Positions 2,148 through 22,220 are shown, counted from the first letter of the stretch. The stretch: DNA of 64,000 bases from a virus (IMGVR_UViG_3300035208_002606), one strand, 5' to 3'. The notes: generated from the letters alone by a model not told the origin. Made by a program: numbers and translations.

Positions 2148-2175
2148 TATATTTGGCTTATCGAGGAGGCTAAAG

Positions 2176-2895: not shown

Positions 2896-3806
2896 TGAAT
2901 TCAAAAATCGCTATTCTTGGTAGTTCAGGAATGTTGGGCCACCAGGTTGCCAATTATTTTTACAGGCATTACTACCCTGCCGACCTGACATTTTTCGCAA
3001 GGAACATAGACAGCAAGAAATGGCAGGGAGTGGAGACAGTTGAATTGGACGATGATTGGTGTGCTTTGCACGATATCAACAAATACGATTATATTATCAA
3101 CTGTATCGGAGTTATTAATCGCCGTATTGACGAAAAAGACCCGTCAAGCAGAATTAATGCTTTTATCGGCAATGTTTCCCTACCGTATTATCTCGCACGA
3201 AAAGTGGAAGGCACGAACACACAAATCCTGCAAATTTCAACCGATTGCGTATTCAACGGCAAAGAACCTTTGGCACTTACGGAAGTGACCCCACATAACG
3301 CAACGGATTGGTACGGCAAAACAAAGAGTCTTGGGGAAGTCGTATCCAAAAATTTCCACCATATTCGCACTTCCATTATCGGCAGGGAAGAGCCGCCGAA
3401 TCGTAGGTCGCTGTTGGAGTGGTTCCTGCATTTGGAGCAGGGGGCCGAGGTCAATGGTTTTGTCAATCATTTATGGAACGGCACAACTACGCTAGAGTTC
3501 GCCAAACTTTGTTTCTCCATCATCACCAATAATATAGACATGCCCCTCGTTCACCACTTTGTCCACATCGATATCGTTACCAAATATGGAATGCTCAAAA
3601 CCTTTGCCAAAGTATTTGATAGGCCCGATATCAAGATAAATCCTTACGAGACTGAACCCGTATATAAGGCATTGACCACTCTAAGTCCGAACCTTAATGC
3701 CGAACTAGTAGCGTCAATAGGATATAAAAAACCGACATTTGAAAATTTATTATGGGAGTTAAAGAATGAAACAGAAAATTCTAGTGTGTTTGGGTACGAG
3801 ACCTGA
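2895..3806 (+). CDS. RmlD/CapF-like NAD(P)-dependent sugar-nucleotide reductase
   Basis: N-terminal KIAILGSSGMLG Rossmann motif; position after dehydratase in operon. Confidence 0.5.
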   Translation: MNSKIAILGSSGMLGHQVANYFYRHYYPADLTFFARNIDSKKWQGVETVELDDDWCALHDINKYDYIINCIGVINRRIDEKDPSSRINAFIGNVSLPYYLARKVEGTNTQILQISTDCVFNGKEPLALTEVTPHNATDWYGKTKSLGEVVSKNFHHIRTSIIGREEPPNRRSLLEWFLHLEQGAEVNGFVNHLWNGTTTLEFAKLCFSIITNNIDMPLVHHFVHIDIVTKYGMLKTFAKVFDRPDIKINPYETEPVYKALTTLSPNLNAELVASIGYKKPTFENLLWELKNETENSSVFGYET

Positions 3807-4830
3807 AATAATACGTTTATCTCAAATCATTTTCAAACTTAAACAAGTGGCTGATGTGGTGGTGGTCAATACTAACCAAAACTTTGACCCCAAATTGAAC
3901 GAAAACTTTTTACAAGAATTGGGTATACATATCGACCATAACCTGAACGCTAGAGGGACTTTTTCCGAACAATGTGCGGGAATTTTTATGGGGATGGAGC
4001 ATGTTATTACCCAAGAGAAGCCGCATAAGTTCCTTGTACTTGGGGACACCAATTCAGGACTTGGGGCCATCATTGCAAAGAAAATGGGAATACCCGTCTA
4101 TCATTTGGAAGCAGGAAACCGTTGTTTCGATGATGCTGTTCCCGAAGAAGTAAACCGCCGTGTTATTGACCATTGTTCCGATATTCTCATGCCGTATACC
4201 GAACGAGCAAAAGAGAATTTAGTTGTAGAAGGGATTCCCCGCCAACGTATTTATATTATTGGCAACCCCATCTTTGAGGTTATCAATCATTATACTTCCA
4301 AGGCTAGACAAGACAGAGTTTGGAAAAAACCATATTATCTTATTACCCTTCACCGTTCGGAAAATGTGGACAATGAAGAACGCTTCGCAAGATTCCTTCA
4401 TCTTTTCACAACCTTTGCGGAATTACACAAGGATACCGATGTAATTGTCAGCACTCACCCGCATACAAGGCTGAATATGACCAAGATGGGAATAGCAATG
4501 GATACAATGCCAAAAAATTTAATATTTTCTGAACCATTTGGGTTTACGGATTTTATTAATCTTGAATTGAACGCCAAAATGGTATTTACGGATTCAGGAA
4601 CAGTTCAAGAAGAATGTTCCATTCTTAAAGTTCCCAACATGACCCTTAGGACGACAACTGAACGCCCCGAAACAATTGAGAGCGGCTCCAATATTTTAAT
4701 GAATCAGGATTTTGACCTGATGAATAACGAATATTTCCAAATGGTGACAGGAAGCCCTCCATCAGGATATTTGGATGAAAATGTCAGCGATAAAGTCGTA
4801 CGAATAATTTTAGGGCATTATCAAAAGTAA
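3766..4830 (+). CDS. UDP-N-acetylglucosamine 2-epimerase (WecB/CapG family)
   Basis: MKQKILVCLGTRPEIIRLSQII matches WecB N-terminus (FGTRPEAIKMAP); HLEAG, DSGT motifs. Confidence 0.7.
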   Translation: MKQKILVCLGTRPEIIRLSQIIFKLKQVADVVVVNTNQNFDPKLNENFLQELGIHIDHNLNARGTFSEQCAGIFMGMEHVITQEKPHKFLVLGDTNSGLGAIIAKKMGIPVYHLEAGNRCFDDAVPEEVNRRVIDHCSDILMPYTERAKENLVVEGIPRQRIYIIGNPIFEVINHYTSKARQDRVWKKPYYLITLHRSENVDNEERFARFLHLFTTFAELHKDTDVIVSTHPHTRLNMTKMGIAMDTMPKNLIFSEPFGFTDFINLELNAKMVFTDSGTVQEECSILKVPNMTLRTTTERPETIESGSNILMNQDFDLMNNEYFQMVTGSPPSGYLDENVSDKVVRIILGHYQK

Positions 4831-8040: not shown

Positions 8041-8670
8041 ATGGCCGAAAAAAAATATTTTACCAAGGAAGAAAAAAAATTAGCACAAAAAGAAAACTAT
8101 AAAAAGTGGTACGAAAATCATAAAACAGAAAGAAAAGCAAAAGATAATAAACGGCGCAGGGAATACTATCAAAATCATAAAGAAGAGCGATTATTATACG
8201 CAAAAGAATATCGTGAAAATCATAAAGAAAAAGGAAAAAAATACAATAAAAATTGGAGGACTGAACATAAACAAGAAATAAAAATAAAAAGAAAAGAATA
8301 TTATCAAAATCATAAAGAAGAGAGAAATAAATATACTCTTAATAAATTGAAAAATAATATTAATTTTAAAATAGCAAATAATTTACGAAATAGATTACGC
8401 CAAGCCTTAAAAGATAATCAAAAATCAGGTTCAGCAGTTAAAGATTTAGGATGTTCTATCCCCGAACTTAAAACCCATTTAGAATCCAAATTTCAAGACG
8501 GAATGACTTGGGATAATTGGTCTCCTACAGGTTGGCACATCGACCATATCAAACCTTTGGCTTCTTTTAATTTAATTAACAGAAAAGAGTTTTTAAAAGC
8601 AAATCATTACACAAATTTGCAACCAATGTGGGCTGAAGAAAACTTTAAAAAGGGGAAAAATGCAATTTGA
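8041..8670 (+). CDS. HNH homing endonuclease (paralog of 6199-6948)
   Basis: GWHIDHIKPLASFNL...HYTNLQPMWAEENFKKG; same Lys-rich N-terminal repeats. Confidence 0.8.
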   Translation: MAEKKYFTKEEKKLAQKENYKKWYENHKTERKAKDNKRRREYYQNHKEERLLYAKEYRENHKEKGKKYNKNWRTEHKQEIKIKRKEYYQNHKEERNKYTLNKLKNNINFKIANNLRNRLRQALKDNQKSGSAVKDLGCSIPELKTHLESKFQDGMTWDNWSPTGWHIDHIKPLASFNLINRKEFLKANHYTNLQPMWAEENFKKGKNAI

Positions 8671-9865
8671 AATTTTAGAAAAATTAGAAGTAAATTTAAA
8701 TAAAGAAATTTCTTTATTTGATTATATTAAAGACAAATCATTTGAGCAAATAAAAACAGATTTATCGCAAGACCCCCTTAATATTAAAACACAAGAAAAA
8801 GAAAATTTATATTTATTAAAGTACTCTCAAATCGACTCCGACTTTTCGTACAGAATCGTACGCCAATGCAGGGGGATTATTCTAGAGAAAGGTACGAACA
8901 AAATCGTGGCCTACCCCTTCGACAAATTCTTTAACATTCAGGAAGGACATGCCGACAAGGTGGACTTCGGGACGGCATCAATTCAGGAGAAAGTGGACGG
9001 CAGTATTATCAAGGTCTATTACTACGACAACAAGTGGAATATTGCGACCAACGGCACAATCGATGCGAAGGATGCTGAAGCCACGGACACGCTGACGGAT
9101 AAAAAGTACAACTTCCACGACTTGTTCTTGGACGGCATCGAAGAGCAGGGCATCACCTTTCCCGAACTGACGAAGAAGATGAACCCTGACTTGACTTATA
9201 TCTTTGAACTCGTTCACCCCGTCACCCGTATCGTTGTCAAATACGAAAAGCCGGGGATTTATCTCATCGGCATCCGCAACAACAAGACGGGAAAGGAAAT
9301 CGACACCTTTGACGAGTCGGATGAGACGGTTAAGGATATTACGGGCTTGGGAATCAAAAGACCCAAGACCTATCAGTTCGCTTCAACAGAGGAAATGATT
9401 GCGGCGGCAGAAAAACTCACGAAGGATGAAGAGGGATATGTCGTTCGAGACAAGGAATTCCGCAGGGTCAAGGTGAAGAGTCCCCTCTATCTTAAATTGC
9501 ATTATCTCAAGGCCAACAACGAATTGACCCCGAAGCACTTCATCGAACTCATTCAGCAGAATGAGACGGACGAGTTCTTGGGGAGTTTTCCTGAGTACAA
9601 GCCGAAGGTTGACGATATTCGCAACAGGATTTTTCGATACATCGAAACGGCGCAGAAAGATTGGCAAGACCTCTACAAACTCTTCGGGCCTGAGTTCAAA
9701 TCCCGCAGGGAATTTGCCGAAGTTGCGAAGAAGACCACGAACTCAGGAGCGATGTTTAAAGCGTTGGACGCTTTTCAGAAAGGTGAGACAGATATCAATA
9801 AATTTATCCATAAATACATTATGGAGATGCAAACGGACAGGCTGTTGACAGCAATAGGAGTGTGA
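8660..9865 (+). CDS. ATP-dependent RNA ligase (Rnl-type nucleotidyltransferase)
   Basis: IQEKVDGSIIKVYY KxDG motif I; size and context (next to CCA/Pnk genes). Confidence 0.6.
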   Translation: MQFEILEKLEVNLNKEISLFDYIKDKSFEQIKTDLSQDPLNIKTQEKENLYLLKYSQIDSDFSYRIVRQCRGIILEKGTNKIVAYPFDKFFNIQEGHADKVDFGTASIQEKVDGSIIKVYYYDNKWNIATNGTIDAKDAEATDTLTDKKYNFHDLFLDGIEEQGITFPELTKKMNPDLTYIFELVHPVTRIVVKYEKPGIYLIGIRNNKTGKEIDTFDESDETVKDITGLGIKRPKTYQFASTEEMIAAAEKLTKDEEGYVVRDKEFRRVKVKSPLYLKLHYLKANNELTPKHFIELIQQNETDEFLGSFPEYKPKVDDIRNRIFRYIETAQKDWQDLYKLFGPEFKSRREFAEVAKKTTNSGAMFKALDAFQKGETDINKFIHKYIMEMQTDRLLTAIGV

Positions 9866-9887
9866 ACATGGGAGAAGGTGGCAGTAA

Positions 9888-10148
9888 ATGGTATGGACAG
9901 CAGAGAAACAGAAACAACTTCGCGCTCTTGGGTTCGAATATGTCAAAGACTCCGACAAATGGATTAGGCATTGCCCCAATCACGATGAGTTCGTCAGGGC
10001 AACGGCAGAGTTCCTCTATTGGTTCGATACCGAAAACAAGAACGGCAGCTATGTCCGTGGGAGCAATCGATGGCCCATCATGCACTTTGATGCTTTGGTA
10101 ATTTTTTTGAGGGCATTGAGATATTTGGAGAAGGAGATAGGGGAATGA
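9888..10148 (+). CDS. hypothetical protein
   Basis: 86 aa ORF; its 3' end is part of a 48-bp segment duplicated at 10386. Confidence 0.4.
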   Translation: MVWTAEKQKQLRALGFEYVKDSDKWIRHCPNHDEFVRATAEFLYWFDTENKNGSYVRGSNRWPIMHFDALVIFLRALRYLEKEIGE

Positions 10149-10165
10149 AATTAAGAATAGTTGAA
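10118..10165 (+). repeat. 48-bp direct repeat copy 1 (gene 3' end plus RBS plus start of next gene)
   Basis: gagatatttggagaaggagataggggaatgaaattaagaatagttgaa identical at 10386-10433. Confidence 0.8.
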
Positions 10166-10387
10166 AAAGATTTTAAAGTAGGACAATGGGTGATTTATCG
10201 AAAAGGAAGCAAGTTGGGTGAAGAACAAATGGGCATGGTTAAAAGTTGGAATGATAAATTTATTTTTGTGGTTTTTCAATGTAATGGTGAATGGGATAGA
10301 TATTTTGATTATATGTCCCAAGCCTGTAACCCCGAAGATTTAACTATAGTTCCTGAAGGTGCTTTTAAATCTTATCCTGTAAAATGA
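10145..10387 (+). CDS. hypothetical protein (MKLRIVE start)
   Basis: ORF, ATGA overlap. Confidence 0.45.
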   Translation: MKLRIVEKDFKVGQWVIYRKGSKLGEEQMGMVKSWNDKFIFVVFQCNGEWDRYFDYMSQACNPEDLTIVPEGAFKSYPVK

Positions 10388-10433
10388 GATATTTGGAGAA
10401 GGAGATAGGGGAATGAAATTAAGAATAGTTGAA
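10386..10433 (+). repeat. 48-bp direct repeat copy 2
   Basis: Identical to 10118-10165. Confidence 0.8.
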
Positions 10434-10748
10434 TCTTCTTATGAGGAATTATTTAAAGACTTTGAAAAACAGATAGAAACTAAACCCTTTAAAAATATAG
10501 ATAAAGAAACATGGGCAACAATACAATTAGAGGGAATAGACGAAGAGAAAGAAAAATTTGAACCTGAAGAATATTCCTTTATCGAATTAGATATTCCCAA
10601 TACAGACAAAGAAGAATTGAAAATAATGAACGATAATGTTGTGGAAAAATACAATCAATTTGATATAATTTTGAAGGCCACTTTTTCCAATCTTATAGAC
10701 CTGATAGACTATGAAAAAGGCAATGTGAAAATTATAAAAATAAAATGA
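10413..10748 (+). CDS. hypothetical acidic protein (MKLRIVE start, duplicated initiation region)
   Basis: ORF begins inside second copy of the 48-bp repeat. Confidence 0.45.
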   Translation: MKLRIVESSYEELFKDFEKQIETKPFKNIDKETWATIQLEGIDEEKEKFEPEEYSFIELDIPNTDKEELKIMNDNVVEKYNQFDIILKATFSNLIDLIDYEKGNVKIIKIK

Positions 10749-11113
10749 AATTTAAACTCCTTCCAAAAAACTATCCCACCAAAGAAGGCGGCTCCTGCAT
10801 GCTTGCCGCAGAAATCATGACGGCTAAACTCTTGAAAAGGGGCATCAAGAATTTCAAGGTGAAGGAAGGTTGGGTTCTTGTTGGGCCTAACGAAGAGGAA
10901 CTAGCCCACACTTGGATAGAGTTTGATAACGGAGAAATTTTAGACCCCACAATAGAACAGTTCGGACATCCCCACGAAATAGAATACGGAGAAGTAAAGG
11001 AAGAATTTACCCCTGAAGAATATTTAGAGGCGTGTGATTTTTACGGTGCGGAAGAAGAGTGGAGTAAATGGGGATTTGACAGGTACGGGAAAAAATATAA
11101 GGGTGCGGAATGA
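10745..11113 (+). CDS. hypothetical protein (MKFKLL start)
   Basis: ORF, ATGA overlap. Confidence 0.5.
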   Translation: MKFKLLPKNYPTKEGGSCMLAAEIMTAKLLKRGIKNFKVKEGWVLVGPNEEELAHTWIEFDNGEILDPTIEQFGHPHEIEYGEVKEEFTPEEYLEACDFYGAEEEWSKWGFDRYGKKYKGAE

Positions 11114-11610
11114 AATTTAAACTTCTTGAATCTTTGGAACAGGATGCTTTGAAGTACAAAACACCTGAAGAATTTGCAAATAAACACGCCGACAATGTTT
11201 GGATTCATTCGACTGACGCTAAAAACTTTGATAAATTTAATACATCAGAAGTTTGGTTTGAATATGATGCCTTAGGGGGATACGGAGATAGAGAAATAGC
11301 CATCCATTACGAAATAAAAAAACCATTCGTAACTTCATCGGACGAATTTATCCATCAAGATTTTCACATAACGGCAGAAGAAGCAAGAAAAAATAAAGAA
11401 TTATATCATTCTTGGGGTGGAGAAGCAAATCCTGAATCCTTTGAAAAAATGAGAAAATTGGGGTATGAAACTTTGATAGACGATGAGGGATTTTGTGCGT
11501 TATATCCAAATAAAGTAACAATAATAGCACACAGGGCAAAATGGAAAAACGGAGACTTTGACAGGAAAGGCATGCTTATTAAGTTTTGGAAGAAAGCGCA
11601 TGCAAAATAA
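11110..11610 (+). CDS. hypothetical protein (MKFKLLE start)
   Basis: ORF, ATGA overlap. Confidence 0.5.
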   Translation: MKFKLLESLEQDALKYKTPEEFANKHADNVWIHSTDAKNFDKFNTSEVWFEYDALGGYGDREIAIHYEIKKPFVTSSDEFIHQDFHITAEEARKNKELYHSWGGEANPESFEKMRKLGYETLIDDEGFCALYPNKVTIIAHRAKWKNGDFDRKGMLIKFWKKAHAK

Positions 11611-11716
11611 AGAATTCACCCCAAATTGCCCCTAGAACACCCAAATTCCTTGCCAGAATCGTTTAAGAGGCGTTTTCTCCCCGCTTTCGCATAAAAACCC
11701 CAATTCCGTTACAAAG

Positions 11717-11727
11717 TGTGGTATAAT
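11717..11727 (+). promoter_or_regulatory. extended -10 promoter
   Basis: gtgtggtataat. Confidence 0.5.
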
Positions 11728-11745
11728 TGAAATGGAGAAGAAAAA

Positions 11746-11930
11746 TGAATTATATTTGCAATCATTCAGAAACCTGTGAAAACACAAATTGCATGCATCA
11801 CAGGATTCACGATTATTCGGACGATTATTGCCACCCCACATTCTGCCCTGTCATAGGGAAGAATGTCAGGTGCGTAACTTTACCTGAATTAGTAATTACT
11901 ACCCCTGACGATGTTGTCGTAGGGATGTAA
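11746..11930 (+). CDS. Cys/His-rich small protein
   Basis: MNYICNHSETCENTNCMHHRIH...; downstream of TGTGGTATAAT promoter at 11717-11727. Confidence 0.4.
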
Positions 11931-11949
11931 AAATAAAAAGGAGGATACA

Positions 11950-12147
11950 ATGCCAAGAGGAGACAAAACGGGTCCAGAAGGAAGAGGCCCAAGAACAGGA
12001 AGAGGGGCAGGAAACTGTTCACCCACTACAAGTGATGTTTCGGCTCCCCCACGCCCACGCAGGGGGCTTGGAATGGGGAGAGGAATGGGTCAAGGCCCAG
12101 GGCCGAATCGTTCAGGCAGAGGACTTGGACGAAGAAGCGGACGCTAA
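11950..12147 (+). CDS. Gly/Arg/Pro-rich small basic protein
   Basis: 65 aa RGRG/GRGxG-rich ORF with strong RBS aaaggaggatacaATG inside a short GC-rich island. Confidence 0.4.
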   Translation: MPRGDKTGPEGRGPRTGRGAGNCSPTTSDVSAPPRPRRGLGMGRGMGQGPGPNRSGRGLGRRSGR

Positions 12148-12159
12148 TTTGTAACAAGG

Positions 12160-12170
12160 TGTGGTATAAT
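12160..12170 (+). promoter_or_regulatory. extended -10 promoter
   Basis: gtgtggtataat. Confidence 0.5.
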
Positions 12171-12209
12171 AAGAGTGTAAAATTCATCATAGGAGGATGA
12201 ACGATAAAA

Positions 12210-12458
12210 ATGGCAAAAACGATTAAGGAAAAGGTAATCAACAGGATTACCAACGCAGAGAAGAAGAGAGTTGGGCGCAAGACGCTGTATGTCATGCCGC
12301 ACAAAGACCTTCTTCGGCTTTCGAAGGCTGAGGATTCCGCAACCCGCCGGCTTCGGGAGATGGCTGAGGAATTTCGAGGAAAGGGAAATCCACAGCCAAT
12401 CAATATCGTGGGTGAACACCTACATATTGAGCCTTCGTTCGTAAAGTGGTTGCAGTAA
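12210..12458 (+). CDS. hypothetical protein
   Basis: RBS taggaggatgaacgataaaaATG; followed by rho-independent terminator. Confidence 0.45.
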   Translation: MAKTIKEKVINRITNAEKKRVGRKTLYVMPHKDLLRLSKAEDSATRRLREMAEEFRGKGNPQPINIVGEHLHIEPSFVKWLQ

Positions 12459-12482
12459 CCCCCTAACGCAACCATGACTTCA

Positions 12483-12517
12483 GGGCGCACCTTCCAACGG
12501 TGCGCCCTTTTTATTTT
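12483..12517 (+). terminator. rho-independent terminator
   Basis: gggcgcacc-ttccaa-cggtgcgccc followed by tttttatttt. Confidence 0.65.
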
Positions 12518-12545
12518 AAAGTGATAAATAAAGGTAGAGGTTAAA

Positions 12546-12908
12546 ATGGAATTCACTTTACTTGAAACAACATACACAATGGGAATGTGTGATGCCTATG
12601 CAATTGCCCTGCATCAAATATATGGCTATCCATTATATGTAATTTATGGTGTATATAAAGATGAGGACGATGAAGAAAATATGGAGCCTTGTCATATTGT
12701 TGCTAAAAAAGGAAACAAATATCTTGATGTGAGAGGAGAACGCACTAAAGAAGAACTGCTAAAGAATTGTGTTTTTATGAATAAAGTATTTAAGGTGAAA
12801 TTCATTGAGACTAGCGAAGAAGAGGCTAGATATATTTTCACTTCAGAAGGTGTTTCTAGTGCCGATATCGTAAAAGCAAAAAAGGAAATATTAAAAAATG
12901 GAATTTAG
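12546..12908 (+). CDS. hypothetical protein (MEFTLLE start)
   Basis: ORF with RBS. Confidence 0.5.
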   Translation: MEFTLLETTYTMGMCDAYAIALHQIYGYPLYVIYGVYKDEDDEENMEPCHIVAKKGNKYLDVRGERTKEELLKNCVFMNKVFKVKFIETSEEEARYIFTSEGVSSADIVKAKKEILKNGI

Positions 12909-14286
12909 AAATTTCGGTGATGTACCGCCGCAAGCCTTGGAAATCGCACAAGTCCTGAATGACGCAGGATACGAAGCCTATTTGGTAGGCGGCTGTGTCA
13001 GGGATATTATGCTAGGCAAAGAACCTAAAGATTGGGATTTCGCAACAAGCGCAACCCCAAAGGAAACCGAACGAGTCCTAACGGAAGCGGAAATCAAGAA
13101 CTACGACAAGGGTGCGGAGTATGGAACTTGGGCGGCTATCATAGACGGCGAAGAATTTGAAATCACGACCTACCGTCTAGAGGCAGACTATTCCGATGCC
13201 CGTAGGCCAAAAGCCGTTTCTTTCTCCAAGGGCATCAAGGAAGACTTGGCCCGTAGGGACTTGACGGTGAACGCTATGGCATTTGACCCGCTGACGGGTG
13301 AGATTATCGACCCCTTCGGCGGTCAGGAAGATTTAGAACGGGGACTTATCAAGGCAGTCGGGAGGCCTGAGGAAAGATTTCATGAGGACGCTCTACGCCT
13401 GATGAGAGCCGTCCGCTTTGCCTCCCGTTACGGATTTGATATAGACGAAGACACGAAGAAAGCGATAAAGAGAAACGCAGAGAGGTTACGATATGTTTCA
13501 GCCGAAAGAATTCGTGATGAACTCAATGGGATTTTGCTGACAGAGAAACCGTCCGTGGGGTTACAACTCCTTCACGACTTGGGCTTGCTGAAAATTGCTT
13601 TGCCCGAAGTAGATATTTTGGATACGGTTCCACAGCAAAGCCCTTGGCATCACAAGAATGTTTTCGGACACACTCTCGATGTCGTAGATAATTCTCCCGC
13701 CCGTGCGGATGTCAGGTGGGCAACCCTCTTGCATGACACGGGAAAGGAGAAGGCTAGGGTCAGGGACGAGACGGGTCGAGACCGCTTTATCGGTCACGAC
13801 TTAATATCCGCAGAAATTGCGGAAGTCGTTCTCAAGCGTCTGAAGTTTGACAACTCTACGGCAAATAAAATTGTTAAGTTGATTGCCCTGCATCAAGCAG
13901 AGCCGAAGAAGCGCAACAAAATAAAACATTTTATTCGGCACTTGGGTGTTGAAAATCTAGAGGATTGGAAGGCCATGCGGCTTGCAGACATTACGGCCCA
14001 CAAGCCCGAGAAAGTTGAAGCAGGAATGGCAATCCACGGAGAACGGGTCAAGACCCTGGACGATATTCTTGCCAAGAACGAGCCGTATATGATTTCGCAG
14101 TTGGATATCAACGGAAACGAGTTGAAAGAAGTCGGGGTTCCTGCTGGACCCATAATGGGAAAAGTCCTGAGGGGATTATTGGACTTGGTGATTCAAAGCC
14201 CTGAAAAAAATCAAAAGGCTTTCCTGAGGAATTGGGCCAAAAATAATTGGCAGAGGATTCAGAAAGAGATAAATAGTGGTAGATGA
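12898..14286 (+). CDS. cca: CCA-adding tRNA nucleotidyltransferase with HD domain
   Basis: YLVGGCVRDIMLGKEPKDWDFATSATP head-domain signature; WHHKNVFGHTLDVVD...LLHDTGK HD motif. Confidence 0.8.
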   Translation: MEFRNFGDVPPQALEIAQVLNDAGYEAYLVGGCVRDIMLGKEPKDWDFATSATPKETERVLTEAEIKNYDKGAEYGTWAAIIDGEEFEITTYRLEADYSDARRPKAVSFSKGIKEDLARRDLTVNAMAFDPLTGEIIDPFGGQEDLERGLIKAVGRPEERFHEDALRLMRAVRFASRYGFDIDEDTKKAIKRNAERLRYVSAERIRDELNGILLTEKPSVGLQLLHDLGLLKIALPEVDILDTVPQQSPWHHKNVFGHTLDVVDNSPARADVRWATLLHDTGKEKARVRDETGRDRFIGHDLISAEIAEVVLKRLKFDNSTANKIVKLIALHQAEPKKRNKIKHFIRHLGVENLEDWKAMRLADITAHKPEKVEAGMAIHGERVKTLDDILAKNEPYMISQLDINGNELKEVGVPAGPIMGKVLRGLLDLVIQSPEKNQKAFLRNWAKNNWQRIQKEINSGR

Positions 14287-15374
14287 AATTTAAGGTCGTA
14301 GATTTACCCCAAGGCGTTCAGACAATCGGTAACGTGCTGAACAAGAACGGATTCAAAGCCTATGTCGTAGGCGGGGCCGTACGAGACTATTTGCTTGGCA
14401 GACCCCCTAAGGATTGGGACATTGCGACCTCCGCAAAACCTGAAGATGTCATGCGAATCTTCGAAGGCATGGACTTCAAGATTTGGCCTATGGGACAAAA
14501 GTACGGCATCGTAAAAGTTCAAGCCGGCACGGACGATTACGATATCACAACCCTTCGCAAGCGCATATCTTTCGAGGGCGGGAAATCGCAAGTTGCCGAA
14601 TATTCAGACAGCATTGAAGAAGACTTGGCGTTCAGGGACTTGACCATCAACGCCCTGGCCATCGACATTCAGACAGGAGAAATTATCGACCCTCACGGCG
14701 GTCAGGAAGATTTAAAAAATGGTATCGTTCGGGCAATTGGAGACCCTGACGAACGCCTGAAGGAAGGGCCGATTCGTTCCCTTCGTGCGATTCGCTTCGC
14801 AGTCAAGTACAATTTCAAGTTAGACCAAGAAACGGCAAACACCATCAAGCGGCATGCTTCCGAATTAAAGATGGTCGCAGGGGGGCGCATCAAGCGGGAA
14901 CTTAATACGATGCTCCTGCTTGACGATGCATCGAGAGCGTTGCGGATGTTGCGGGATACGGGCGTTGCAAGAGCATTGTTTCCCGAAGTAAATTTGGACG
15001 AAGCGATAGAAAAAATCAACGACCTTCCGAAGAATCTTGAAGAGCGGTGGGCTGAAATTTTAAAGGACACGGGAAAGGGTGAAAAAATCTCCACCGCAAT
15101 CGCAAGGCAAATCATGCGCCGTCTTGGATTCGTGCTTGCGGAAATCGAAAAGGTCAACAGGCTGATTTATTCCAAGGGCGAACAGAAATTGACGGCAGAC
15201 GATTTGGATATCACGGAGAAGGAACTTCAAAAATTGGGAATTACGCCTGAAGAAATGGAGACGATAAAAACCCAACTCATCAATCTGATTGTATTCCGGC
15301 CTGAGAAGAACAAGAACTCCATCCTGAAGAACAGGGTGAAGAAGTGGAAGCAAGGGGTTGCGATAGAAAAATGA
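14283..15374 (+). CDS. tRNA nucleotidyltransferase / poly(A) polymerase head-domain paralog (no HD domain)
   Basis: YVVGGAVRDYLLGRPPKDWDIATSAKP; RDLTINALAID; paralog of upstream gene. Confidence 0.75.
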   Translation: MKFKVVDLPQGVQTIGNVLNKNGFKAYVVGGAVRDYLLGRPPKDWDIATSAKPEDVMRIFEGMDFKIWPMGQKYGIVKVQAGTDDYDITTLRKRISFEGGKSQVAEYSDSIEEDLAFRDLTINALAIDIQTGEIIDPHGGQEDLKNGIVRAIGDPDERLKEGPIRSLRAIRFAVKYNFKLDQETANTIKRHASELKMVAGGRIKRELNTMLLLDDASRALRMLRDTGVARALFPEVNLDEAIEKINDLPKNLEERWAEILKDTGKGEKISTAIARQIMRRLGFVLAEIEKVNRLIYSKGEQKLTADDLDITEKELQKLGITPEEMETIKTQLINLIVFRPEKNKNSILKNRVKKWKQGVAIEK

Positions 15375-15937
15375 AATTCACAATAGCAGAAGACAAGGGC
15401 GACAAAATCTTTTATATGGCAGTCGGCATCAGCGGGTCGGGGAAGTCAACTTATCTCAACAAGATTTTTACACCTGATATCATTGTCGAACCTGACGCAA
15501 TTCGCAGGGAAATGACGGGTTCCGTATCTGACCAAAGTCAAGACGCTTTCGTATGGCGTGAGGCGGCAAAAAGAATAAATGAAAAATTACAGGAAGAACC
15601 TTATACAGCAATTCTTGACGCTACTAACACGGTGAGTAGATATCGTAAAGATTTTTTAAAGCAACTCCCCGAAGGCACTCATACTGTTGCCTTAGTATTC
15701 ATGCCGCAAGGGACGGACGAGGAAATCGTGGACAAACTCTACAAGAGAATCCAACGAGACCTAAAAAATAAAAAAGATAGAAGCGCAGTTCCAAAGGAAG
15801 TAATCGAACGGCAATTAAGACAATTCAGGAACGGACTGCAAAATATTCAAAACCAATTTGATATGGTCGAAGAAATTCCTGTGGAATTAACAGACGAAGA
15901 CGAAATCAAGTGGTTCAACAGTACATCTTACGCATAA
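15372..15937 (+). CDS. P-loop polynucleotide-kinase-like protein (kinase domain only)
   Basis: FYMAVGISGSGKSTYL Walker A resembling T4 Pnk kinase domain; no DxDxT phosphatase domain. Confidence 0.55.
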
Positions 15938-15970: not shown

Positions 15971-16297
15971 ATGAAATGGATTAGCATAAAAGACAGAATG
16001 CCAAAGGATTACCAACGAGTCTTGGCAACAGATGGAAAGGGTTATGATTTCCTGCACCTGAGTAATGAGTTCGGATTTATGGAACAACCCACAGGAGTTA
16101 AATTTTGGTGTCCTGACAACATTCATTGTTCTCCCAAGGTTAATGTTAATAAAATCACTCATTGGATGGAAGTCGAACTTCCCGAAAAGCCACCGAAACC
16201 CCTAACGGCTAAACAATTAACTAGTCTTAGAAAAAGTATGGAACAGTCTACTAAAATCGCTCATAGAATTTTAAATAAGGAGAAAAAGAAAAAGTAA
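15971..16297 (+). CDS. hypothetical protein
   Basis: Downstream of TGTGGTATAAT promoter (15948-15953) and RBS aggaggaaagaATG. Confidence 0.45.
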   Translation: MKWISIKDRMPKDYQRVLATDGKGYDFLHLSNEFGFMEQPTGVKFWCPDNIHCSPKVNVNKITHWMEVELPEKPPKPLTAKQLTSLRKSMEQSTKIAHRILNKEKKKK

Positions 16298-16701
16298 TGG
16301 ACGGCAGGATTACACCTGATAAGGTTGTGTCATTAGGAGAGAATGAGATTTTTGTGTTTGGGTCGAATCGTTCGGGAAGGCACTCCAAAGGGGCGGCGAA
16401 AACAGCGATGTACAAGTTCGGGGCCAAGTGGGGTCAAGCGGATGGATTGCAAGGTAGAAGTTATGGCATCCCCACCAAGGACCGAAATTTAAATGTGTTA
16501 AATATCGATGAAATTGAACACTATGTTCGCAAGTTCATTTCCGTTGCCAAGAAGAACCCCCAACTTACTTTCCTTGTCACAGAAATAGGTTGCGGACTCG
16601 CAAAATTCTCTCCTAAGCAAATCGCACCCCTTTTCGAAAAGGCAAAAGATGTTCCAAACATTCACTTGCCGAAAAGATTTTGGGACCAACTTACCAAATA
16701 A
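16297..16701 (+). CDS. conserved hypothetical protein, possible Rossmann-like nucleotide-binding fold
   Basis: IFVFGSNRSGRHSKGAAKTA ... GIPTKD motif; family not confidently recalled. Confidence 0.4.
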   Translation: MDGRITPDKVVSLGENEIFVFGSNRSGRHSKGAAKTAMYKFGAKWGQADGLQGRSYGIPTKDRNLNVLNIDEIEHYVRKFISVAKKNPQLTFLVTEIGCGLAKFSPKQIAPLFEKAKDVPNIHLPKRFWDQLTK

Positions 16702-17350: not shown

Positions 17351-17426
17351 TCGGGGTGTAGCGCAGTTGGTAGCGTATCTGCTTTGGGAGCAGAGAGTCG
17401 GAGGTTCGAACCCTCTCACCCCGACC
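17351..17426 (+). tRNA. tRNA-Pro(TGG), CCA encoded
   Basis: Acceptor cggggtg/caccccg, anticodon loop tttggga, T-arm ggaggttcgaaccctct; 10 nt downstream of extended -10 promoter. Confidence 0.7.
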
Positions 17427-17448
17427 ATTTTTAAAAAGTTCGCAAAGG

Positions 17449-17478
17449 ACTTGACAAGTAGAAATTAGCATGTTATAC
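17449..17478 (+). promoter_or_regulatory. sigma70-type promoter TTGACA-18-TATACT
   Basis: cttgacaagtagaaattagcatgttatact. Confidence 0.45.
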
Positions 17479-17675
17479 TTGTCACGGATGATATGACCTA
17501 GCAGGATGCGGGTCTTAGGTTGTTTGACATTTTGGTTTTGTGGTTTTTGTGAAGTGGGGCCGGTAGTTTCCCGGTCTTGTATCGGGATGGTATCGCCCCC
17601 GCTTCTTTTTCCTGAAGAGGGTCGATACTCTTTTCGGTGCAGTTAGATGCATCGGGAGTATCGCCCCTCTTCATA

Positions 17676-17935
17676 ATTCAGCGGCGGTGTGGAAGGACAC
17701 ACTAGGAGAGTGAGTGAGGACAGGCCTGACTACGGGTTAGCGGAACAACCGCTCCTTCGGGTTCTCCTGAAATGGAGATTGAATGTCTGAAGATATCCCA
17801 ATAAGAAATGCTCAAAGCGTGAGTGGTGTTAGAAAAAAGTAGGTTTACCGCTCTAAGGCACGGCAATTTAATATTTGCATGCTTACATACGCAACGGAAG
17901 TCCCACAAGTAGGTATCAAGTCCTACCCGCTGAAT
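17676..17935 (+). ncRNA. family-E tRNA-like structured RNA element
   Basis: Terminal helix attcagcgg/ccgctgaat; 5' hairpin gtgtg-GAAGGA-cacac; 3' hairpin gtagg-tatcaagt-cctac; U-tail. Confidence 0.4.
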
Positions 17936-18029
17936 TTTTAATCTAACCGCTTCGCCGTTGTGCGGCCTCCTGAAACATGGAAAAACAACGGCACTTGCAA
18001 TATTACTTCTTAATACTTTACTTTTATAT

Positions 18030-18105
18030 GGGGCCGTGGCAGACAAGTAGGTGCGTCTCGTTGTCAGCGAGGAATATGGGGGTGCGATTCCCCTCGACCC
18101 CGCCA
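18030..18105 (+). tRNA. tRNA-Asp(GTC), CCA encoded, non-canonical D/T loops
   Basis: Acceptor ggggccg/cgacccc, anticodon stem tctcg/cgagg, loop ttgtcag, T-loop tgcgatt, D-loop lacks GG. Confidence 0.45.
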
Positions 18106-18304
18106 AGCATTATTACGATGGGTTTTACAGCGTTAGGGCCATCATAAAAACAAGAAACTGTACTGAGGAGGGTTTTTCCGTGTTGTGCCTCAATAAAAAG
18201 AAACGGACTTTGCACTTTTTGTTCGTTACCAAGTGTAACGAACCCACAGAGGTTTCGTTCGCCTGAACCCGTCTGACGAATCAGGCGAAGATTATATCTC
18301 ACCT

Positions 18305-18456
18305 ATCAGCAGGTGGAAGGACACCGCATCGTGGAAGAGGAACTACTTTCCAACATCGGAGAGAAGCCCCTGGCCTCAAGACTAGGCAGTAGAATTCATG
18401 GGTCCATCACGATGGCTACATCTGAAGGAGTCAGCGGGTGTCGAGTCCCGCCTGAT
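18305..18456 (+). ncRNA. family-E element
   Basis: atcagc.../...cctgat termini; ggtg-GAAGGA-cacc hairpin; 3' hairpin gcggg-tgtcgagt-cccgc. Confidence 0.35.
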
Positions 18457-19111
18457 TGGTTATTAGTTAAGGTTTTCGGTGAACCTCCTAAGGTCGTACA
18501 GCGACCAAGGGTTATCGTACGTAAAAACCGAATTGGAATAGAGTAGGTTGGGGAAAGACGCCTAGGGTCTCCTGACCGAATTGGCTTTTGTGTCGTTGTG
18601 CCGCACCCACTTGATATCGTGGGCAGAGAAAACAACGGCTTGGAGTTCTTTGCCGTTATCCACCAATTCCATCGGCAGATAGGGTTGGTATTAAAAAATC
18701 AACGGCTTCCAATTTGATTTTACTGATTCTTTAAAAGAATCGGAAAACATAAAATGAGGCTTTCCGTTGTGCCATCCATCACCAAGTACCTAGAGTCGGG
18801 TTAATGGGAAAACAACGGGTTTCATTTTATTATCCTTGTTGTCCTTTATTGAGGTTAGCGGTGAGCCGCAAGAAGTGGTACTCGGAACTCCAATCCTAGC
18901 ACCTATGCTTGAAAAACCGCTGAGGTCAATGGCATTAATTTAGCAATGTATATATTGAGGCGAGAACGGGAGTAGAAATTGGGTTCTCCCTAATTCTGAC
19001 CTATTCCCATTCTCACTTCAAGCATTACTATCGCAGGAGGGAGGTCAATATCTCAGGTGGTTTCATATGCCATCTTAAAGTCGTGTAACTCGGCTTCCTG
19101 CTAGAAAATTA

Positions 19112-19188
19112 TCGCAGAGTATCCTAGTGGCTAAGGAATGAGTTTCATAAACTCGGAGCCGAAGGTTCGAATCCTTCCTCTGCGACCA
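19112..19188 (+). tRNA. tRNA-Met(CAT), CCA encoded
   Basis: Acceptor tcgcaga/tctgcga, loop ttcataa, T-arm gaaggttcgaatccttc. Confidence 0.7.
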
Positions 19189-19198
19189 AAGCAATTTT

Positions 19199-19287
19199 AC
19201 CGAAGGACGGTAGCCCCGTTTCCGCAAGAATAGGCATCGGCTAGCAAAACTATTCCATAGGAATGAGAGTAGCCTCTCATCTTCGGT
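19199..19287 (+). ncRNA. family-E-like element (divergent)
   Basis: accgaag/cttcggt termini, 3' hairpin tgaga-gtagcc-tctca, T-tract. Confidence 0.3.
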
Positions 19288-19294
19288 TTTTTAT

Positions 19295-19365
19295 GGCCCT
19301 ATCGGCTAATAGTAGGCCGCTTCCCTTTCAAGGAAGAAACGTCGGAGCGTAACCGGCTAGGGCTA
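19295..19365 (+). tRNA. tRNA-Glu(TTC)-like, non-canonical T-loop agcgtaa
   Basis: Acceptor ggcccta/tagggct, anticodon stem cttcc/ggaag, loop ctttcaa. Confidence 0.45.
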
Positions 19366-19378
19366 CTTAATTTTTTTC

Positions 19379-19449
19379 GTCCCTATCGGCTAATAGTAGG
19401 CCACTTCACTCTCAATGAAGAAACCTCAGAGCGTAACTGAGTAGGGATA
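19379..19449 (+). tRNA. tRNA-Glu(CTC)-like, tandem paralog of preceding
   Basis: Acceptor gtcccta/tagggat, loop ctctcaa, T-arm ctcag-agcgtaa-ctgag. Confidence 0.45.
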
Positions 19450-19466
19450 CTTAGCAATTTTATGTA

Positions 19467-19610
19467 TGGAGCGGGTCTTGAAAAACACAAGAACGTCTCG
19501 GAAAATAGGGGTTGAAGGCACCCCAACGATACGGGTAACGAAAAAAGGAGCAGTAGCCCTTTACAACCTATAAAGGGGACTTCCTTATGGGTGAAATTCC
19601 CATCGCTCCA
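19467..19610 (+). ncRNA. family-E-like element (divergent)
   Basis: tggagcg/cgctcca termini, 3' hairpin atggg-tgaaatt-cccat. Confidence 0.3.
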
Positions 19611-19623
19611 CTTGCAATTTTAT

Positions 19624-19751
19624 GCGCGGGGTCCGATTGGGTGACATTCCCACGAACTAGTTTCGCCATCAGGGAGTGATGCCCCAAAGTGGTGCAACGA
19701 AAAAGGTGAGGAAATCGCATCCCTTTAGACGGTGGAACTCCGTCCCTGCGC
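19624..19751 (+). ncRNA. family-E-like element (divergent)
   Basis: gcgcgggg/ccctgcgc termini, 3' hairpin gacgg-tggaact-ccgtc. Confidence 0.3.
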
Positions 19752-19765
19752 TTTTAAATTTTTAA

Positions 19766-19836
19766 GCCCGATTAGTTTAAAAGTAAAACGCAATCCTGAT
19801 AAGGTTGATACGGTGGAGCGTTACCATCATCGGGCA
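19766..19836 (+). tRNA. tRNA-Ile(GAT), non-canonical class
   Basis: Acceptor gcccgat/atcgggc, AC stem caatc/ggttg, loop ctgataa, T-loop agcgtta. Confidence 0.45.
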
Positions 19837-19840
19837 TTTA

Positions 19841-19925
19841 TGCCGTAGTAGTCTAGCAGCAATGACAGCAGACTGTAAATCTGCCCCTCGTAAGAGGTTC
19901 GTAGGTGCGAGTCCTTCCTGCGGCA
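19841..19925 (+). tRNA. tRNA-Tyr(GTA), class II, non-canonical T-loop
   Basis: AC arm gcaga-ctgtaaa-tctgc, variable hairpin cctc-gtaa-gagg, acceptor gccgtag/ctgcggc. Confidence 0.5.
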
Positions 19926-20253
19926 CTTTGTTTTGTTCTTTAGTCAGTCCACCTTGAGAGAGATACGCTTCAGCGGCTCTCTAAGTTTTGTCCGTCTTTA
20001 TTAGACAGATGGGCTTGTGGACGCTTTAGAATTCGTTGGCGGTGTGTAGGGCGTGTAGTTTTGAATGCGACTAGACAAACGGATGCCCTATGTCAGCGAA
20101 GATAAATTATAATTAGATATTAATTAGAATGGGAACCTTAGGGCGTTGAATTGTGTCGCAGGGTCAATTGCTCTAAGGGGATGAGTTTGGATTAACGGGC
20201 GGTGGAGCCGACCATTGTTTAGGCGTTGAAGCCGCCCGAAATTTTTGTCGTGT

Positions 20254-20324
20254 AGCCGCATAAGTTAAAGGCAAACTGGTTCACTTATAATGGACTCATC
20301 CTAGTTCGATTCTAGGTGCGGCTA
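20254..20324 (+). tRNA. tRNA with anticodon TAT (Ile-like)
   Basis: Acceptor agccgca/tgcggct, D-arm agtt-aaaggca-aact, loop cttataa, T-arm cctag-ttcgatt-ctagg. Confidence 0.4.
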
Positions 20325-20574
20325 GTTTTGTATTATCCAAAGGGAATGAATGGACGGAGTAATTAACCGAAAGTTTATTTTCCTTTGAATGAGATAAAGG
20401 GAGTCTAGATTCCCTTTTGAAGAGGATACCCTTTCGTCTAGTGGTTAGGACGGCGGCGCATTGCCGTTAACTTGGGTTCGAATCCCAACAGGGTTTTAGG
20501 ATGGCGGTTTGGGAGTTCATCTGTCTAGACAGAAGAATGTAAGTCCGTCTCCCCTCTTCTTTTTTATTTCAAAG

Positions 20575-20585
20575 TGTGGTATAAT
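20575..20585 (+). promoter_or_regulatory. extended -10 promoter upstream of tRNA-Ala
   Basis: gtgtggtataat. Confidence 0.55.
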
Positions 20586-20593
20586 AGAAGTAT

Positions 20594-20669
20594 GGGCGAT
20601 GGGACTGCTTGGGGTGGTCGCCTCACTTGCAATGAGGATATCAGGCGAGTTCGAATCTCGCATCGTCCA
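20594..20669 (+). tRNA. tRNA-Ala(TGC)
   Basis: Acceptor gggcgat/atcgtcc, AC arm cctca-cttgcaa-tgagg, T-arm gcgag-ttcgaat-ctcgc; extended -10 promoter 9 nt upstream. Confidence 0.65.
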
Positions 20670-20721
20670 CATTTTGAACCTAAATATTTTTCAAAACACT
20701 AAATAATAGTAAAGGTTCAAA

Positions 20722-21783
20722 ATGAAACAACGGCAAGGGATGAGTTATTCTGAGGCGGGGAAATTAGGAGCAAAAATAGGTTGTGAAATTGTTCAAAACA
20801 AATGGCAAAAAATTATCAAGGAATATGATAAAAACCCAAATCATTGTATAGTTTGTAATAAATCATTATCTTATTACAAACGTAATAAACAATTTTGCGG
20901 TTCTTCTTGTTCAGCAACTTATAATAACCAACATAGATTTTTTAAACCATCGGAAGATAAAAGAACAAAAATAATAAAATGTGCTAAATGTGGGAAAGAA
21001 ATAGAAGAAAATATTAGAGCAGGAAAAAATACAAAGTGCAGTAATTGTAAAACACAAATAAAAACAATAAAAATTATCAAAATAAATGGCAAAGAAACAA
21101 AAATTATAAGAAAAATAAGAAATCCTAAAATTCCAAAATTATGTAAATATTGTGGTCAGGAAAAATGCTTACGTCCTGATATATGTAGAAAACATCAATT
21201 ATTTCCAGCATTGATAAATTATTTCGGACTTAATAAATCTAAAATAGGAACAATTGATTTTTATGAAGAATTTGATAGAATACGAAATAAACTCATTGAG
21301 GAATATATAAATCAAAAAAGGAGTCTTGTTGAATTAAAGGAAAAATATAACCACCACGATATAAGAAATTTTAACAAACTTTTTGATAGTTTAAAAATTC
21401 CTAAACGAAATAATTCTGATTCCGTAAGAAATGCGGTTTTTAATGGTCGATATAAATTACCATCAGCACAATATCCATATAAACACGGTTGGCATACAAC
21501 TTGGGATAACAAAAAAGTTTTTTATCGTAGTTCTTACGAATTAGATTATGCAAAAGAACTAGATAAACAACAAATAGAATACGAAATGGAAAAATTAAGG
21601 ATACTTTATTGGGACAGCCAAAGACAAATACAACGAGTGGCAATTCCCGACTTTTATTTACCCAAGCAAAATAAAATAGTAGAAATAAAAAGTCCGTGGA
21701 CTTTGGACAAACAAAATATGAAGGATAAGGAAAAAGCATATAAAGAACACGGATATGTATTTGAATTAATTGTTGGAAAATAA
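20722..21783 (+). CDS. PD-(D/E)XK-family endonuclease with N-terminal Cys-rich zinc-finger region
   Basis: C-terminal ...IPDFYLPKQNKIVEIKS (PD...E-x-K); multiple CxxC pairs N-terminally; paralog at 23883. Confidence 0.5.
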   Translation: MKQRQGMSYSEAGKLGAKIGCEIVQNKWQKIIKEYDKNPNHCIVCNKSLSYYKRNKQFCGSSCSATYNNQHRFFKPSEDKRTKIIKCAKCGKEIEENIRAGKNTKCSNCKTQIKTIKIIKINGKETKIIRKIRNPKIPKLCKYCGQEKCLRPDICRKHQLFPALINYFGLNKSKIGTIDFYEEFDRIRNKLIEEYINQKRSLVELKEKYNHHDIRNFNKLFDSLKIPKRNNSDSVRNAVFNGRYKLPSAQYPYKHGWHTTWDNKKVFYRSSYELDYAKELDKQQIEYEMEKLRILYWDSQRQIQRVAIPDFYLPKQNKIVEIKSPWTLDKQNMKDKEKAYKEHGYVFELIVGK

Positions 21784-21787
21784 TCGC

Positions 21788-21858
21788 GCCCCACTAGTTC
21801 AATAGCAGAACGCATCACCTGTAATGATGATATGCGGGTGCAATTCCTGCGTGGGGCT
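21788..21858 (+). tRNA. tRNA-Thr(TGT), C33, non-canonical T-loop tgcaatt
   Basis: Acceptor gccccac/gtggggc, D-arm gttc-aatagca-gaac, AC arm catca-cctgtaa-tgatg. Confidence 0.45.
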
Positions 21859-21863
21859 TTTTT

Positions 21864-21935: not shown

Positions 21936-21947
21936 TTGAAATTTCAT

Positions 21948-22207: not shown

Positions 22208-22220
22208 TTTAATTATGATA

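Follow-up and report, generated by a model that had tools for sequence, protein, structure and literature searches.

Host immunity directed at tRNA is a fast-growing field that includes PrrC, PARIS, retron effectors, Schlafens and, from 2026 on, the CCA-tail-cutting Cas12a3, and it poses the question of how phages respond when the universally conserved ends of tRNAs are attacked. A jumbo-phage RNA-repair repertoire was reportedly described by Burroughs and Aravind in 2016. In group 2/3 jumbo phages, Iyer, Anantharaman, Krishnan, Burroughs, and Aravind (2021, section 3.4.9) describe tRNAs together with Rnl1, Rnl2, or RtcB ligases, polynucleotide kinase (Pnk), phosphoesterases, RlaP, a CCA-adding enzyme, and Thg1, and they read this repertoire as a defense of the translation apparatus (PMC7824862). 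Here, we analyzed a gene set of this kind in a 64,000-nucleotide stretch of the viral sequence IMGVR_UViG_3300035208_002606, hereafter the window, which lies on a 239,128-bp metagenomic contig (ENA ERZ27247350, k141_2421955); the same genes were recovered in three other samples. At its center stand three consecutive genes for a CCA-adding enzyme with an HD domain (CCA_HD), an altered paralog of that enzyme (CCA2), and a Pnk-type P-loop kinase.

Like the repertoire of Iyer et al., the window combines a large tRNA set with Rnl1, a second ATP-dependent ligase, Pnk, an HD phosphoesterase, RlaP, a CCA-adding enzyme, and a Thg1-like protein (TLP). For a jumbo phage, such a toolkit is nothing unusual and belongs to a known kind of gene set. 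The original prediction, made from this stretch of DNA, knew of no described system in which 5'-end, 3'-end, and loop repair stand together with a tRNA set, and this claim to novelty does not hold against that report. Unlike the described repertoire, the window has two tandem class II tRNA-nucleotidyltransferase paralogs, a kinase without a fused phosphatase, and an Rnl5-type ligase divided between two open reading frames (ORFs), and RtcB, PTH2, and 2H phosphoesterase were not found within it (among about 70 window ORFs scanned, neither these nor PTH or a dedicated 3'-phosphatase were matched in Pfam, PHROGs, or NCBIfam). What appears to be new is the conserved CCA_HD-CCA2-kinase triad with its remodeled nucleotidyltransferase, for which we found no earlier description, and the main interest of the gene set is CCA2. 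We consider it likely that the window genes constitute a tRNA maintenance module of an uncultured jumbo phage of the T4 superfamily, working as proposed below. The six ORFs named in the original prediction (two ligases, two CCA-type proteins, a Pnk-like kinase, and a Thg1-like protein) were all present at the predicted coordinates, on the plus strand, and in the predicted families according to Pfam, PHROG, NCBIfam, and structure alignments, and no catalytic residue of the ligase, Pnk-like, and Thg1-like ORFs was lost on alignment.

Table 1. Features of the window, in order of position counted from its first nucleotide
Feature	Coordinates	Strand	Assignment	Basis
Rnl1	8660-9865	+	T4 Rnl1-type ATP-dependent RNA ligase, 401 aa	PF09511 RNA_lig_T4_1 1.4e-26; PHROG 562 (T4 gp63/Rnl1) 2.6e-57
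Hairpin	12482-12508	+	Terminator-like hairpin (10 bp, 8 GC, T-run) between Rnl1 block and CCA block	Consensus scan alone
CCA_HD	12898-14286	+	Predicted class II CCA-adding enzyme with HD phosphohydrolase domain, 462 aa	Pfam PolyA_pol head, RNA-binding domain, tRNA_NucTran2_2, HD
CCA2	14283-15374	+	HD-less derived class II tRNA-nucleotidyltransferase paralog, 363 aa	PolyA_pol head and RNA-binding domain only
Kinase	15371-15937	+	Stand-alone polynucleotide 5'-kinase-type P-loop kinase, 188 aa	AAA_33 6.7e-18; PHROG 505 (Pnk), PHROG 6931
A1S_2505-family protein	16297-16701	+	Phage protein	NF049995 1.7e-44; PHROG 2072
tRNA array	17352-29345	+	38-39 tRNA genes, all 20 amino acids, homing-endonuclease-like ORFs interspersed	ARAGORN and Rfam
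TLP	28452-29198	+	Thg1-like protein (TLP type, 3'-5' nucleotidyltransferase), inside tRNA array	Thg1 and Thg1C; PF04446 2.6e-28; PHROG 4717 5e-87
TerL	33362-35284	-	T4-type large terminase	29% identity or less to any isolate
RlaP	48338-49288	+	RlaP (RNA-ligase-associated Pol-beta) nucleotidyltransferase	PF10127 2.5e-21 (76.9 versus 23 bits); PHROG 388 1.4e-62
Rnl5, OB part	58828-59190	+	OB-fold N-terminal domain of split Rnl5-type RNA ligase, 120 aa	PF21189 PHA02142 OB-fold 1.4e-29
Rnl5, nucleotidyltransferase part	59203-59931	+	Nucleotidyltransferase domain of split Rnl5 (NgrRnl/DraRnl-type) ligase, 242 aa	PF09414 RNA_ligase 3.4e-30; TIGR02306 DRB0094 type 3e-25

Judged by its motifs, CCA_HD would be a complete, canonical class II CCA-adding enzyme: it scores above the cutoff of the NCBIfam CCA equivalog (NF009814, 292.6 versus 290 bits) and carries GGxVRD, DxD, BxA (R-L-E), RRD, EDxxR, and ERxxxE. 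CCA2 is 39% identical to this neighbor and conserves motif A (GGxVRD) and the catalytic DxD carboxylates, which are invariant across its orthologs, as are motifs C and E. In enzymes of this class, the RRD of motif B serves ribose recognition, and the EDxxR of motif D forms the base template. CCA2 has FRD (DLAFRD) rather than RRD (DxxRRD) in motif B and EGPIR rather than EDxxR in motif D, where the templating Asp is gone (EGxxR or ESxxR in orthologs), and its BxA motif reads R-K-R, not the canonical form. Downstream, it carries GRxxxE (GRIKRE), of the sRxxxE type. In the segment from motif A to the flexible loop, CCA2 lacks the poly(A) polymerase (PAP) motif [LIV][LIV]G[RK][RK]F and has a CCA-like PxGxxxGxV in its place. 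CCA2 falls below the CCA equivalog cutoff (205 versus 290 bits), with a PcnB score near that value (193 bits), and its AlphaFold2 model (pLDDT 88) shows the full head-neck-body-tail fold, with template modeling scores of approximately 0.6 to 0.69 to CCA-adding, PAP, and A-adding structures. The original prediction had counted two CCA-adding-enzyme paralogs, but CCA2 departs from three motifs that define CCA-, CC-, and A-adding enzymes. By sequence criteria it would stand outside all three groups, and the data point to a functional, derived tRNA-type nucleotidyltransferase with a remodeled nucleotide pocket.

Among the best 120 homologs of CCA2 in a collection of 5.8 billion proteins, FRD together with EGxxR was common to three orthologs only, and the other 110 that were scorable carried RRD. 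A profile search of 1.84 billion representatives returned two CCA2-like clusters (753 and 421 bits), after which the score fell to 308 bits and to ordinary CCA enzymes, and a scan of IMG/VR with CCA2 as the query gave distant CCA genes only. The ortholog in lineage L013 (64% identity) has FRD and ESxxR, while the most distant relative, P0121, which is likewise HD-less, has HRD, EDxxR, and ARxxxE and may be an intermediate form. Between the window and its relative L011, CCA2 has a ratio of nonsynonymous to synonymous substitution rates (dN/dS) of 0.046 at a dS of 0.58, from which we conclude that the gene is maintained by selection; the value for CCA_HD is similar (0.038). One further contig, L014, joins a CCA_HD-type N-terminal half to a CCA2-type C-terminal half at DPFGGQEDL (positions 1363-2310); the junction seems to have arisen either by chimeric assembly or by natural recombination of the two paralogs, and the contig was set aside.

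The gene order CCA_HD-CCA2-kinase is conserved in relatives at 64 to 95% identity. Four further lineages (L007, L011, L013, and L094) likewise have a CCA_HD-type gene upstream of CCA2, and the kinase comes next after CCA2 wherever downstream sequence exists (L007/L008, L011, and L012). In P0121/L094, the CCA_HD-type gene stands directly upstream of the HD-less paralog, and the short downstream fragment is not assignable to a kinase. Two places for a CCA-type gene occurred in 1 of 533 phage records that carry such a gene. The clustering claimed for the whole toolkit held for this triad; Rnl1, however, lies 3 kb upstream, beyond the strong terminator-like hairpin, the tRNA array houses the TLP gene, and RlaP and the second ligase lie at a distance of 30 to 45 kb. 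Nearly all genes called at 83-32768 are on the plus strand, and co-orientation by itself is therefore uninformative on function.

The tRNA array bears directly on what a CCA-adding enzyme would do in this phage. The 3'-CCA is encoded in 11 of the 39 tRNA genes and absent from the remaining 28, whose tRNAs therefore cannot mature without CCA addition, attack or none. Phage CCA enzymes are thus not necessarily "repair" genes, since here one is required to finish the phage's own tRNAs. That the phage encodes a full tRNA set was borne out when ARAGORN and Rfam were combined, not by ARAGORN alone, which found 32 tRNAs and missed His and Glu; Rfam added seven (Glu-UUC, Glu-CUC, Ile-GAU, Thr-CGU, Gly-UCC, Pro-CGG, and His-GUG). 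When the array was scanned permissively with Rfam, tRNAs were the sole matches.

For loop repair, the comparison is with the T4 pair of Pnk and Rnl1, which acts against PrrC. The window likewise encodes an Rnl1 with all catalytic residues and a Pnk-clade P-loop 5'-kinase; unlike the T4 system, its kinase has no HAD-type 3'-phosphatase, the two genes are not adjacent, and the proposed 3' healing falls to the HD domain of CCA_HD. Alignment of Rnl1 with T4 Rnl1 (2C5U) showed conservation of R54, K75/F77, the K99-x-D-G nucleophile, E159, E227-G-Y, and K240/K242. Its scores, under the equivalog cutoff TIGR02308 (91.1 versus 242 bits) and over the Pfam cutoff PF09511 (94 versus 28 bits), are those expected of a distant member of the T4 Rnl1 family. 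Among solved structures, the kinase comes closest to the kinase domain of Clostridium thermocellum Pnkp (4GP7), with which it shares the P-loop GxxGxGKS/T (GISGSGKST), the D-x-x-R general-base motif (D-A-I-R), and DATN; it also matches the N-terminal region of NCBIfam bacter_Pnkp (1e-10). Pfam, NCBIfam, and the alignment to 4GP7 agree that the polypeptide is a kinase domain alone, with no 3'-phosphatase domain. By analogy with T4, the kinase and Rnl1 would cover two of the three activities needed at breaks with 2',3'-cyclic-phosphate and 5'-OH ends.

As the candidate for the remaining activity, we propose the HD domain of CCA_HD. A passage of PMC6961547 that cites Yakunin 2004 states that, in the CCA enzyme of Escherichia coli, the HD domain removes 2',3'-cyclic phosphate, and HD-Pnk is a known end-healing enzyme (PMC6097658). 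Both the HD part of CCA_HD (aa 244-368) and the kinase match the HD-plus-kinase family PHROG 6931, and in Bacillus phage PK-3 a 340-aa protein directly adjoining Rnl1 resembles the window kinase in its N-terminal half and the HD domain of CCA_HD in its C-terminal half. The fusion in PK-3 supports an HD-kinase partnership, the activity itself being predicted. Compared with HD-Pnk proteins, such as that of Runella slithyformis and the kinase-HD fusions of PHROG 6931 (e.g., PK-3), the window has both domain types, linked to an RNA ligase; it differs in that the HD domain is fused to the CCA enzyme and the kinase is separate, with CCA2 between them, so that the likeness is one of functional linkage rather than membership.

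At the 5' end, the TLP aligns with the Bacillus thuringiensis TLP (4KGK) at 8.7e-65, with about 50% identity and equal length, and it retains the catalytic carboxylates of RIDG and SDE. HINNLYN, the anticodon-recognition motif of eukaryotes, is absent, VRNSIQS standing in its place, which assigns the protein to the TLP subtype rather than to eukaryotic Thg1; unlike the Bacillus protein, it is phage encoded and its gene lies within a tRNA array. The last 15 nt of the ORF (29184-29198) overlap the 5' end of tRNA-Leu(UAA). Bacterial TLPs repair 5'-truncated tRNAs (PMC3061083, PMC3701042), and by analogy the likeliest role here is templated 5'-end repair or restoration of G-1. Mismatches at acceptor positions 1 to 3 of the amoebal-mitochondrial type, which would need TLP editing, were found in none of the array tRNAs, which show only G1.U72 wobbles there, and tRNA-His (27991-28061) has an encoded G-1 opposite C73.

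The second KxDG ligase that the original prediction placed at 59203-59931 does belong to a ligase family with its residues intact (7e-33 to residues 117-330 of Naegleria NgrRnl, 5COT, with KxDG, the E of motif III, and the K of motif V conserved), but this ORF is the nucleotidyltransferase half only, the OB domain being encoded by the ORF before it. In contrast to Rnl5 enzymes such as DraRnl and NgrRnl, in which both domains are in one polypeptide, the two window ORFs lie in the same frame with two TAA codons between them and a separate GAGGA ribosome-binding site for the downstream one. No suppressor tRNA or recoding that would explain the in-frame stops of the Rnl5 gene was found; the split could mean a two-subunit ligase or a decaying gene. 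RlaP, absent from the list of the original prediction, belongs to a family whose defining feature is association with RNA ligases.

In the mechanism that we propose, the approximately 39 tRNAs are transcribed, and CCA_HD would build the 3' ends of the 28 that lack CCA and also rebuild eroded or cleaved CCA tails. At anticodon-loop breaks with 2',3'-cyclic-phosphate and 5'-OH ends, the HD domain of CCA_HD would remove the 3' phosphate, the kinase would phosphorylate the 5' end, and Rnl1 would seal the break in T4-like fashion. The TLP, given its closeness to the B. thuringiensis enzyme, may extend 5'-truncated tRNAs on the 3' acceptor strand as a template or restore G-1 of tRNA-His opposite C73, and RlaP and the two-piece Rnl5 may provide extra end-filling and nick-sealing capacity. 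CCA2 would be an active, selected tRNA-type nucleotidyltransferase with a remodeled pocket, neither CCA-, CC-, nor A-adding by its sequence. Loop healing and sealing, 3'-CCA synthesis, and templated 5'-end repair, all put forward in the original prediction, are plausible from the enzymes encoded.

CCA2 admits other accounts. Two class II paralogs in one genome, one with sRxxxE, recall the split CC-adding and A-adding pairs of some bacteria (Aquifex, Deinococcus, and Bacillus halodurans), in which case CCA2 would add the terminal A76 only. The literature assigns sRxxxE to A-adding enzymes and PAPs, and CCA2 and its relatives carry this motif (GRxxxE, NRxxxE, or ARxxxE) where CCA_HD has ERxxxE; the PcnB score of CCA2 is close to that of the CCA models, and P0121 retains EDxxR. 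This division of labor is nevertheless quite unlikely. The flexible loop between BxA and motif B, whose deletion is the criterion for CC-adding enzymes (PMC2910056), is of normal length in both window proteins, and CCA_HD moreover passes the complete-CCA equivalog, so that by published sequence criteria it is ruled out as a CC-adding enzyme. CCA2 for its part lacks EDxxR, RRD, and BxA, all of them retained by CC-adding as well as A-adding enzymes; BxA is implicated in A-addition, and in an in vivo selection on the human enzyme the templating Asp was never replaced, even with A-addition alone required (PMC11784652). Alternatively, CCA2 could be a catalytically dead tRNA-binding paralog that acts as a chaperone, a nuclease decoy, or a regulator of CCA_HD, as might be read from three altered nucleotide-pocket and primer-positioning motifs in a protein that keeps its fold and tRNA-binding regions. 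We hold this to be most unlikely, given that none of its orthologs departs from GGxVRD, the two DxD carboxylates, or motifs C and E, that the substitutions themselves are conserved (F-R-D and a small residue for Asp), like those of a remodeled rather than a decayed pocket, and that dN/dS is near 0.05. Over and above the active enzyme with a remodeled pocket that we favor, it is a long shot that CCA2 founds a new functional class of class II tRNA nucleotidyltransferases, in which the loss of the templating Asp to Gly or Ser, of the ribose-sensing Arg to Phe, and of BxA would bring an altered nucleotide choice and allow it, with CCA_HD and the kinase, to rebuild 3' ends beyond those served by canonical CCA enzymes. 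Were this true, CCA2 could restore the discriminator base after Cas12a3-type cleavage that removes (N73)CCA, or alternatively service the 13 to 14 phage tRNAs with non-canonical T-loop/D-loop elbows described below, and it could be the "yet unknown" way in which viruses resist the cleavage of tRNA tails. The cuts that Cas12a3 makes in these tails fall at or before the discriminator, and its authors state that viral tRNAs offer no way around it and that viral means of resistance are unknown (PMC12851939). A link of CCA_HD and CCA2 to Cas12a3 resistance is speculative, phage CCA enzymes generally being equal candidates; a phage with CCA_HD and an altered second nucleotidyltransferase would be a good test case, and with a compact conserved triad of HD-CCA enzyme, altered CCA-like enzyme, and Pnk beside a mostly CCA-less tRNA set, the question of how phages answer attack on tRNA ends becomes testable with four to five small recombinant proteins.

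For the gene set as a whole, the original prediction favored a pure counter-defense toolkit, in which the genes reverse host tRNA-nuclease damage and have no housekeeping role. The T4 precedent, the reading given to such genes in the jumbo-phage review (PMC7824862), the cleavage of tRNA 3' tails by Cas12a3 immunity (PMC12851939), and the presence in the window of NAD-salvage genes, which fit a phage invested in counter-defense, all speak for it, but 28 of the 39 phage tRNAs require CCA addition regardless of any attack, and we judge it unlikely in this exclusive form. A second alternative takes Rnl1 and the kinase away from tRNA altogether: Rnl1 would serve tail-fiber attachment, the second function of T4 gp63, and the targets of the kinase would be DNA ends, mRNA, or a small molecule. 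PHROG 562 is indeed filed under "tail", owing to the dual role of gp63, the kinase has weak matches to Zeta_toxin and 6PF2K as well, and Rnl1 lies in a different putative transcription unit. Yet the Rnl1 catalytic residues are all intact, the top structural and family matches of the kinase are polynucleotide kinases, its gene is tightly and conservedly linked to those for two tRNA nucleotidyltransferases, and the same type of kinase is fused to an HD domain and adjoins Rnl1 in PK-3, which makes this alternative very unlikely. Several points also weigh against the maintenance module that we prefer. Rnl1 is set apart from the CCA and kinase genes by nine small ORFs without a family match in Pfam, PHROGs, or NCBIfam and by the terminator-like hairpin, which suggests separate transcription units, and the contigs of relatives are short and do not reach Rnl1, the synteny seen there being that of the CCA and kinase genes. 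The polynucleotide specificity assigned to the kinase comes from modest scores (E values of 1e-7 to 1e-14), the HD domain of CCA_HD is barely above its Pfam cutoff (26.8 versus 22 bits), and the TLP is without an obligatory maturation substrate in the array because no mismatch at positions 1 to 3 is present and G-1 is encoded. On balance, the module probably serves routine tRNA maturation and upkeep together with resistance to host tRNA nucleases, roles that are inseparable from sequence, and the maturation role is at least as well supported as counter-defense.

The single genes of the set are widespread among phage records (CCA type in 533, Thg1-like in 162, and Rnl1-like in 1,851). The cultured Bacillus phage PK-3 carries, besides Rnl1 and the kinase-HD fusion, a second RNA ligase, a TLP, a nicotinate phosphoribosyltransferase, and 15 tRNAs, and in Goe8 the TLP gene is 3 kb from RtcB. 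The Caulobacter jumbo phages CcrBL9 and CcrSC carry the kinase (Pnk in CcrBL9), and 13 Caulobacter-phage records are common to the match lists for Thg1-like and for CCA genes, a count made by list and not as three genes per genome.

Since TerL is at most 29% identical to any isolate and megablast against 50,697 phage records found no DNA-level relative of the window, the sequence marks the phage as an uncultured, deeply divergent jumbo phage of the T4 superfamily; the GC content of the window is 40.4%.

Several features of the tRNAs themselves were also observed. Non-canonical T-loops occur in 13 to 14 of the 39 tRNAs (e.g., 19295-19365, 19379-19449, 19766-19836, 21788-21858, 23422-23493, and 27991-28061). 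Seven of these have G at position 55 (TGCRAxT), and seven diverge further (AGCGTAA, AGCATAA, CGCACAT, and GGCAGCA), some with the 54/58 pair swapped to A54/T58; the seven most divergent are those missed by ARAGORN. In the odd-T-loop tRNAs, the GG of the D-loop is replaced by AAYAG (crude Fisher P = 8e-5), so that the two changes look like covariation of the elbow contact, and CCA is encoded in only two of these genes. A G1.U72 wobble opens both tRNA-Glu and all four tRNA-Arg genes (19295, 19379, 23249, 25972, 27330, and 27673). Two stretches of the array of about 0.8 to 1 kb (18106-19112 and 22022-22832) gave no tRNA, convincing ORF, or Rfam match even at E = 0.1. An ORF in the array with an S-adenosylmethionine (SAM) methyltransferase-like motif I (LDYGAGK) and no family match (25204-25704) and a B12-binding/radical-SAM enzyme just past the array (30024-31250) are candidate tRNA-modifying enzymes.

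Homing-endonuclease-like ORFs lie within the tRNA array (20722-21783, 22833-23258, and 23883-24875) and around it and the repair genes (2176-2895, 8041-8670, and 52129-52830); the set includes two paralogous DUF7487/endonuclease-I-like genes, one HNH plus helix-turn-helix gene, and two GIY-YIG genes, and an endonuclease VII-like HNH gene is immediately upstream of Rnl1. At the beginning of the window, a block of sugar-nucleotide genes (83-4830; a methyltransferase, a Polysacc_synt_2 dehydratase, an RmlD-like reductase, and a UDP-GlcNAc 2-epimerase), broken up by a GIY-YIG endonuclease, may serve modification of surface or DNA glycans. In the NAD-salvage pair at 41359-43226, which possibly counters NAD-depleting defenses, the first gene is of the isochorismatase family (PncA-like nicotinamidase) and the second encodes a nicotinate phosphoribosyltransferase. 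Downstream of the kinase, the A1S_2505-family protein is also present in the related phage L008, where its gene is syntenic and the protein is 73% identical.

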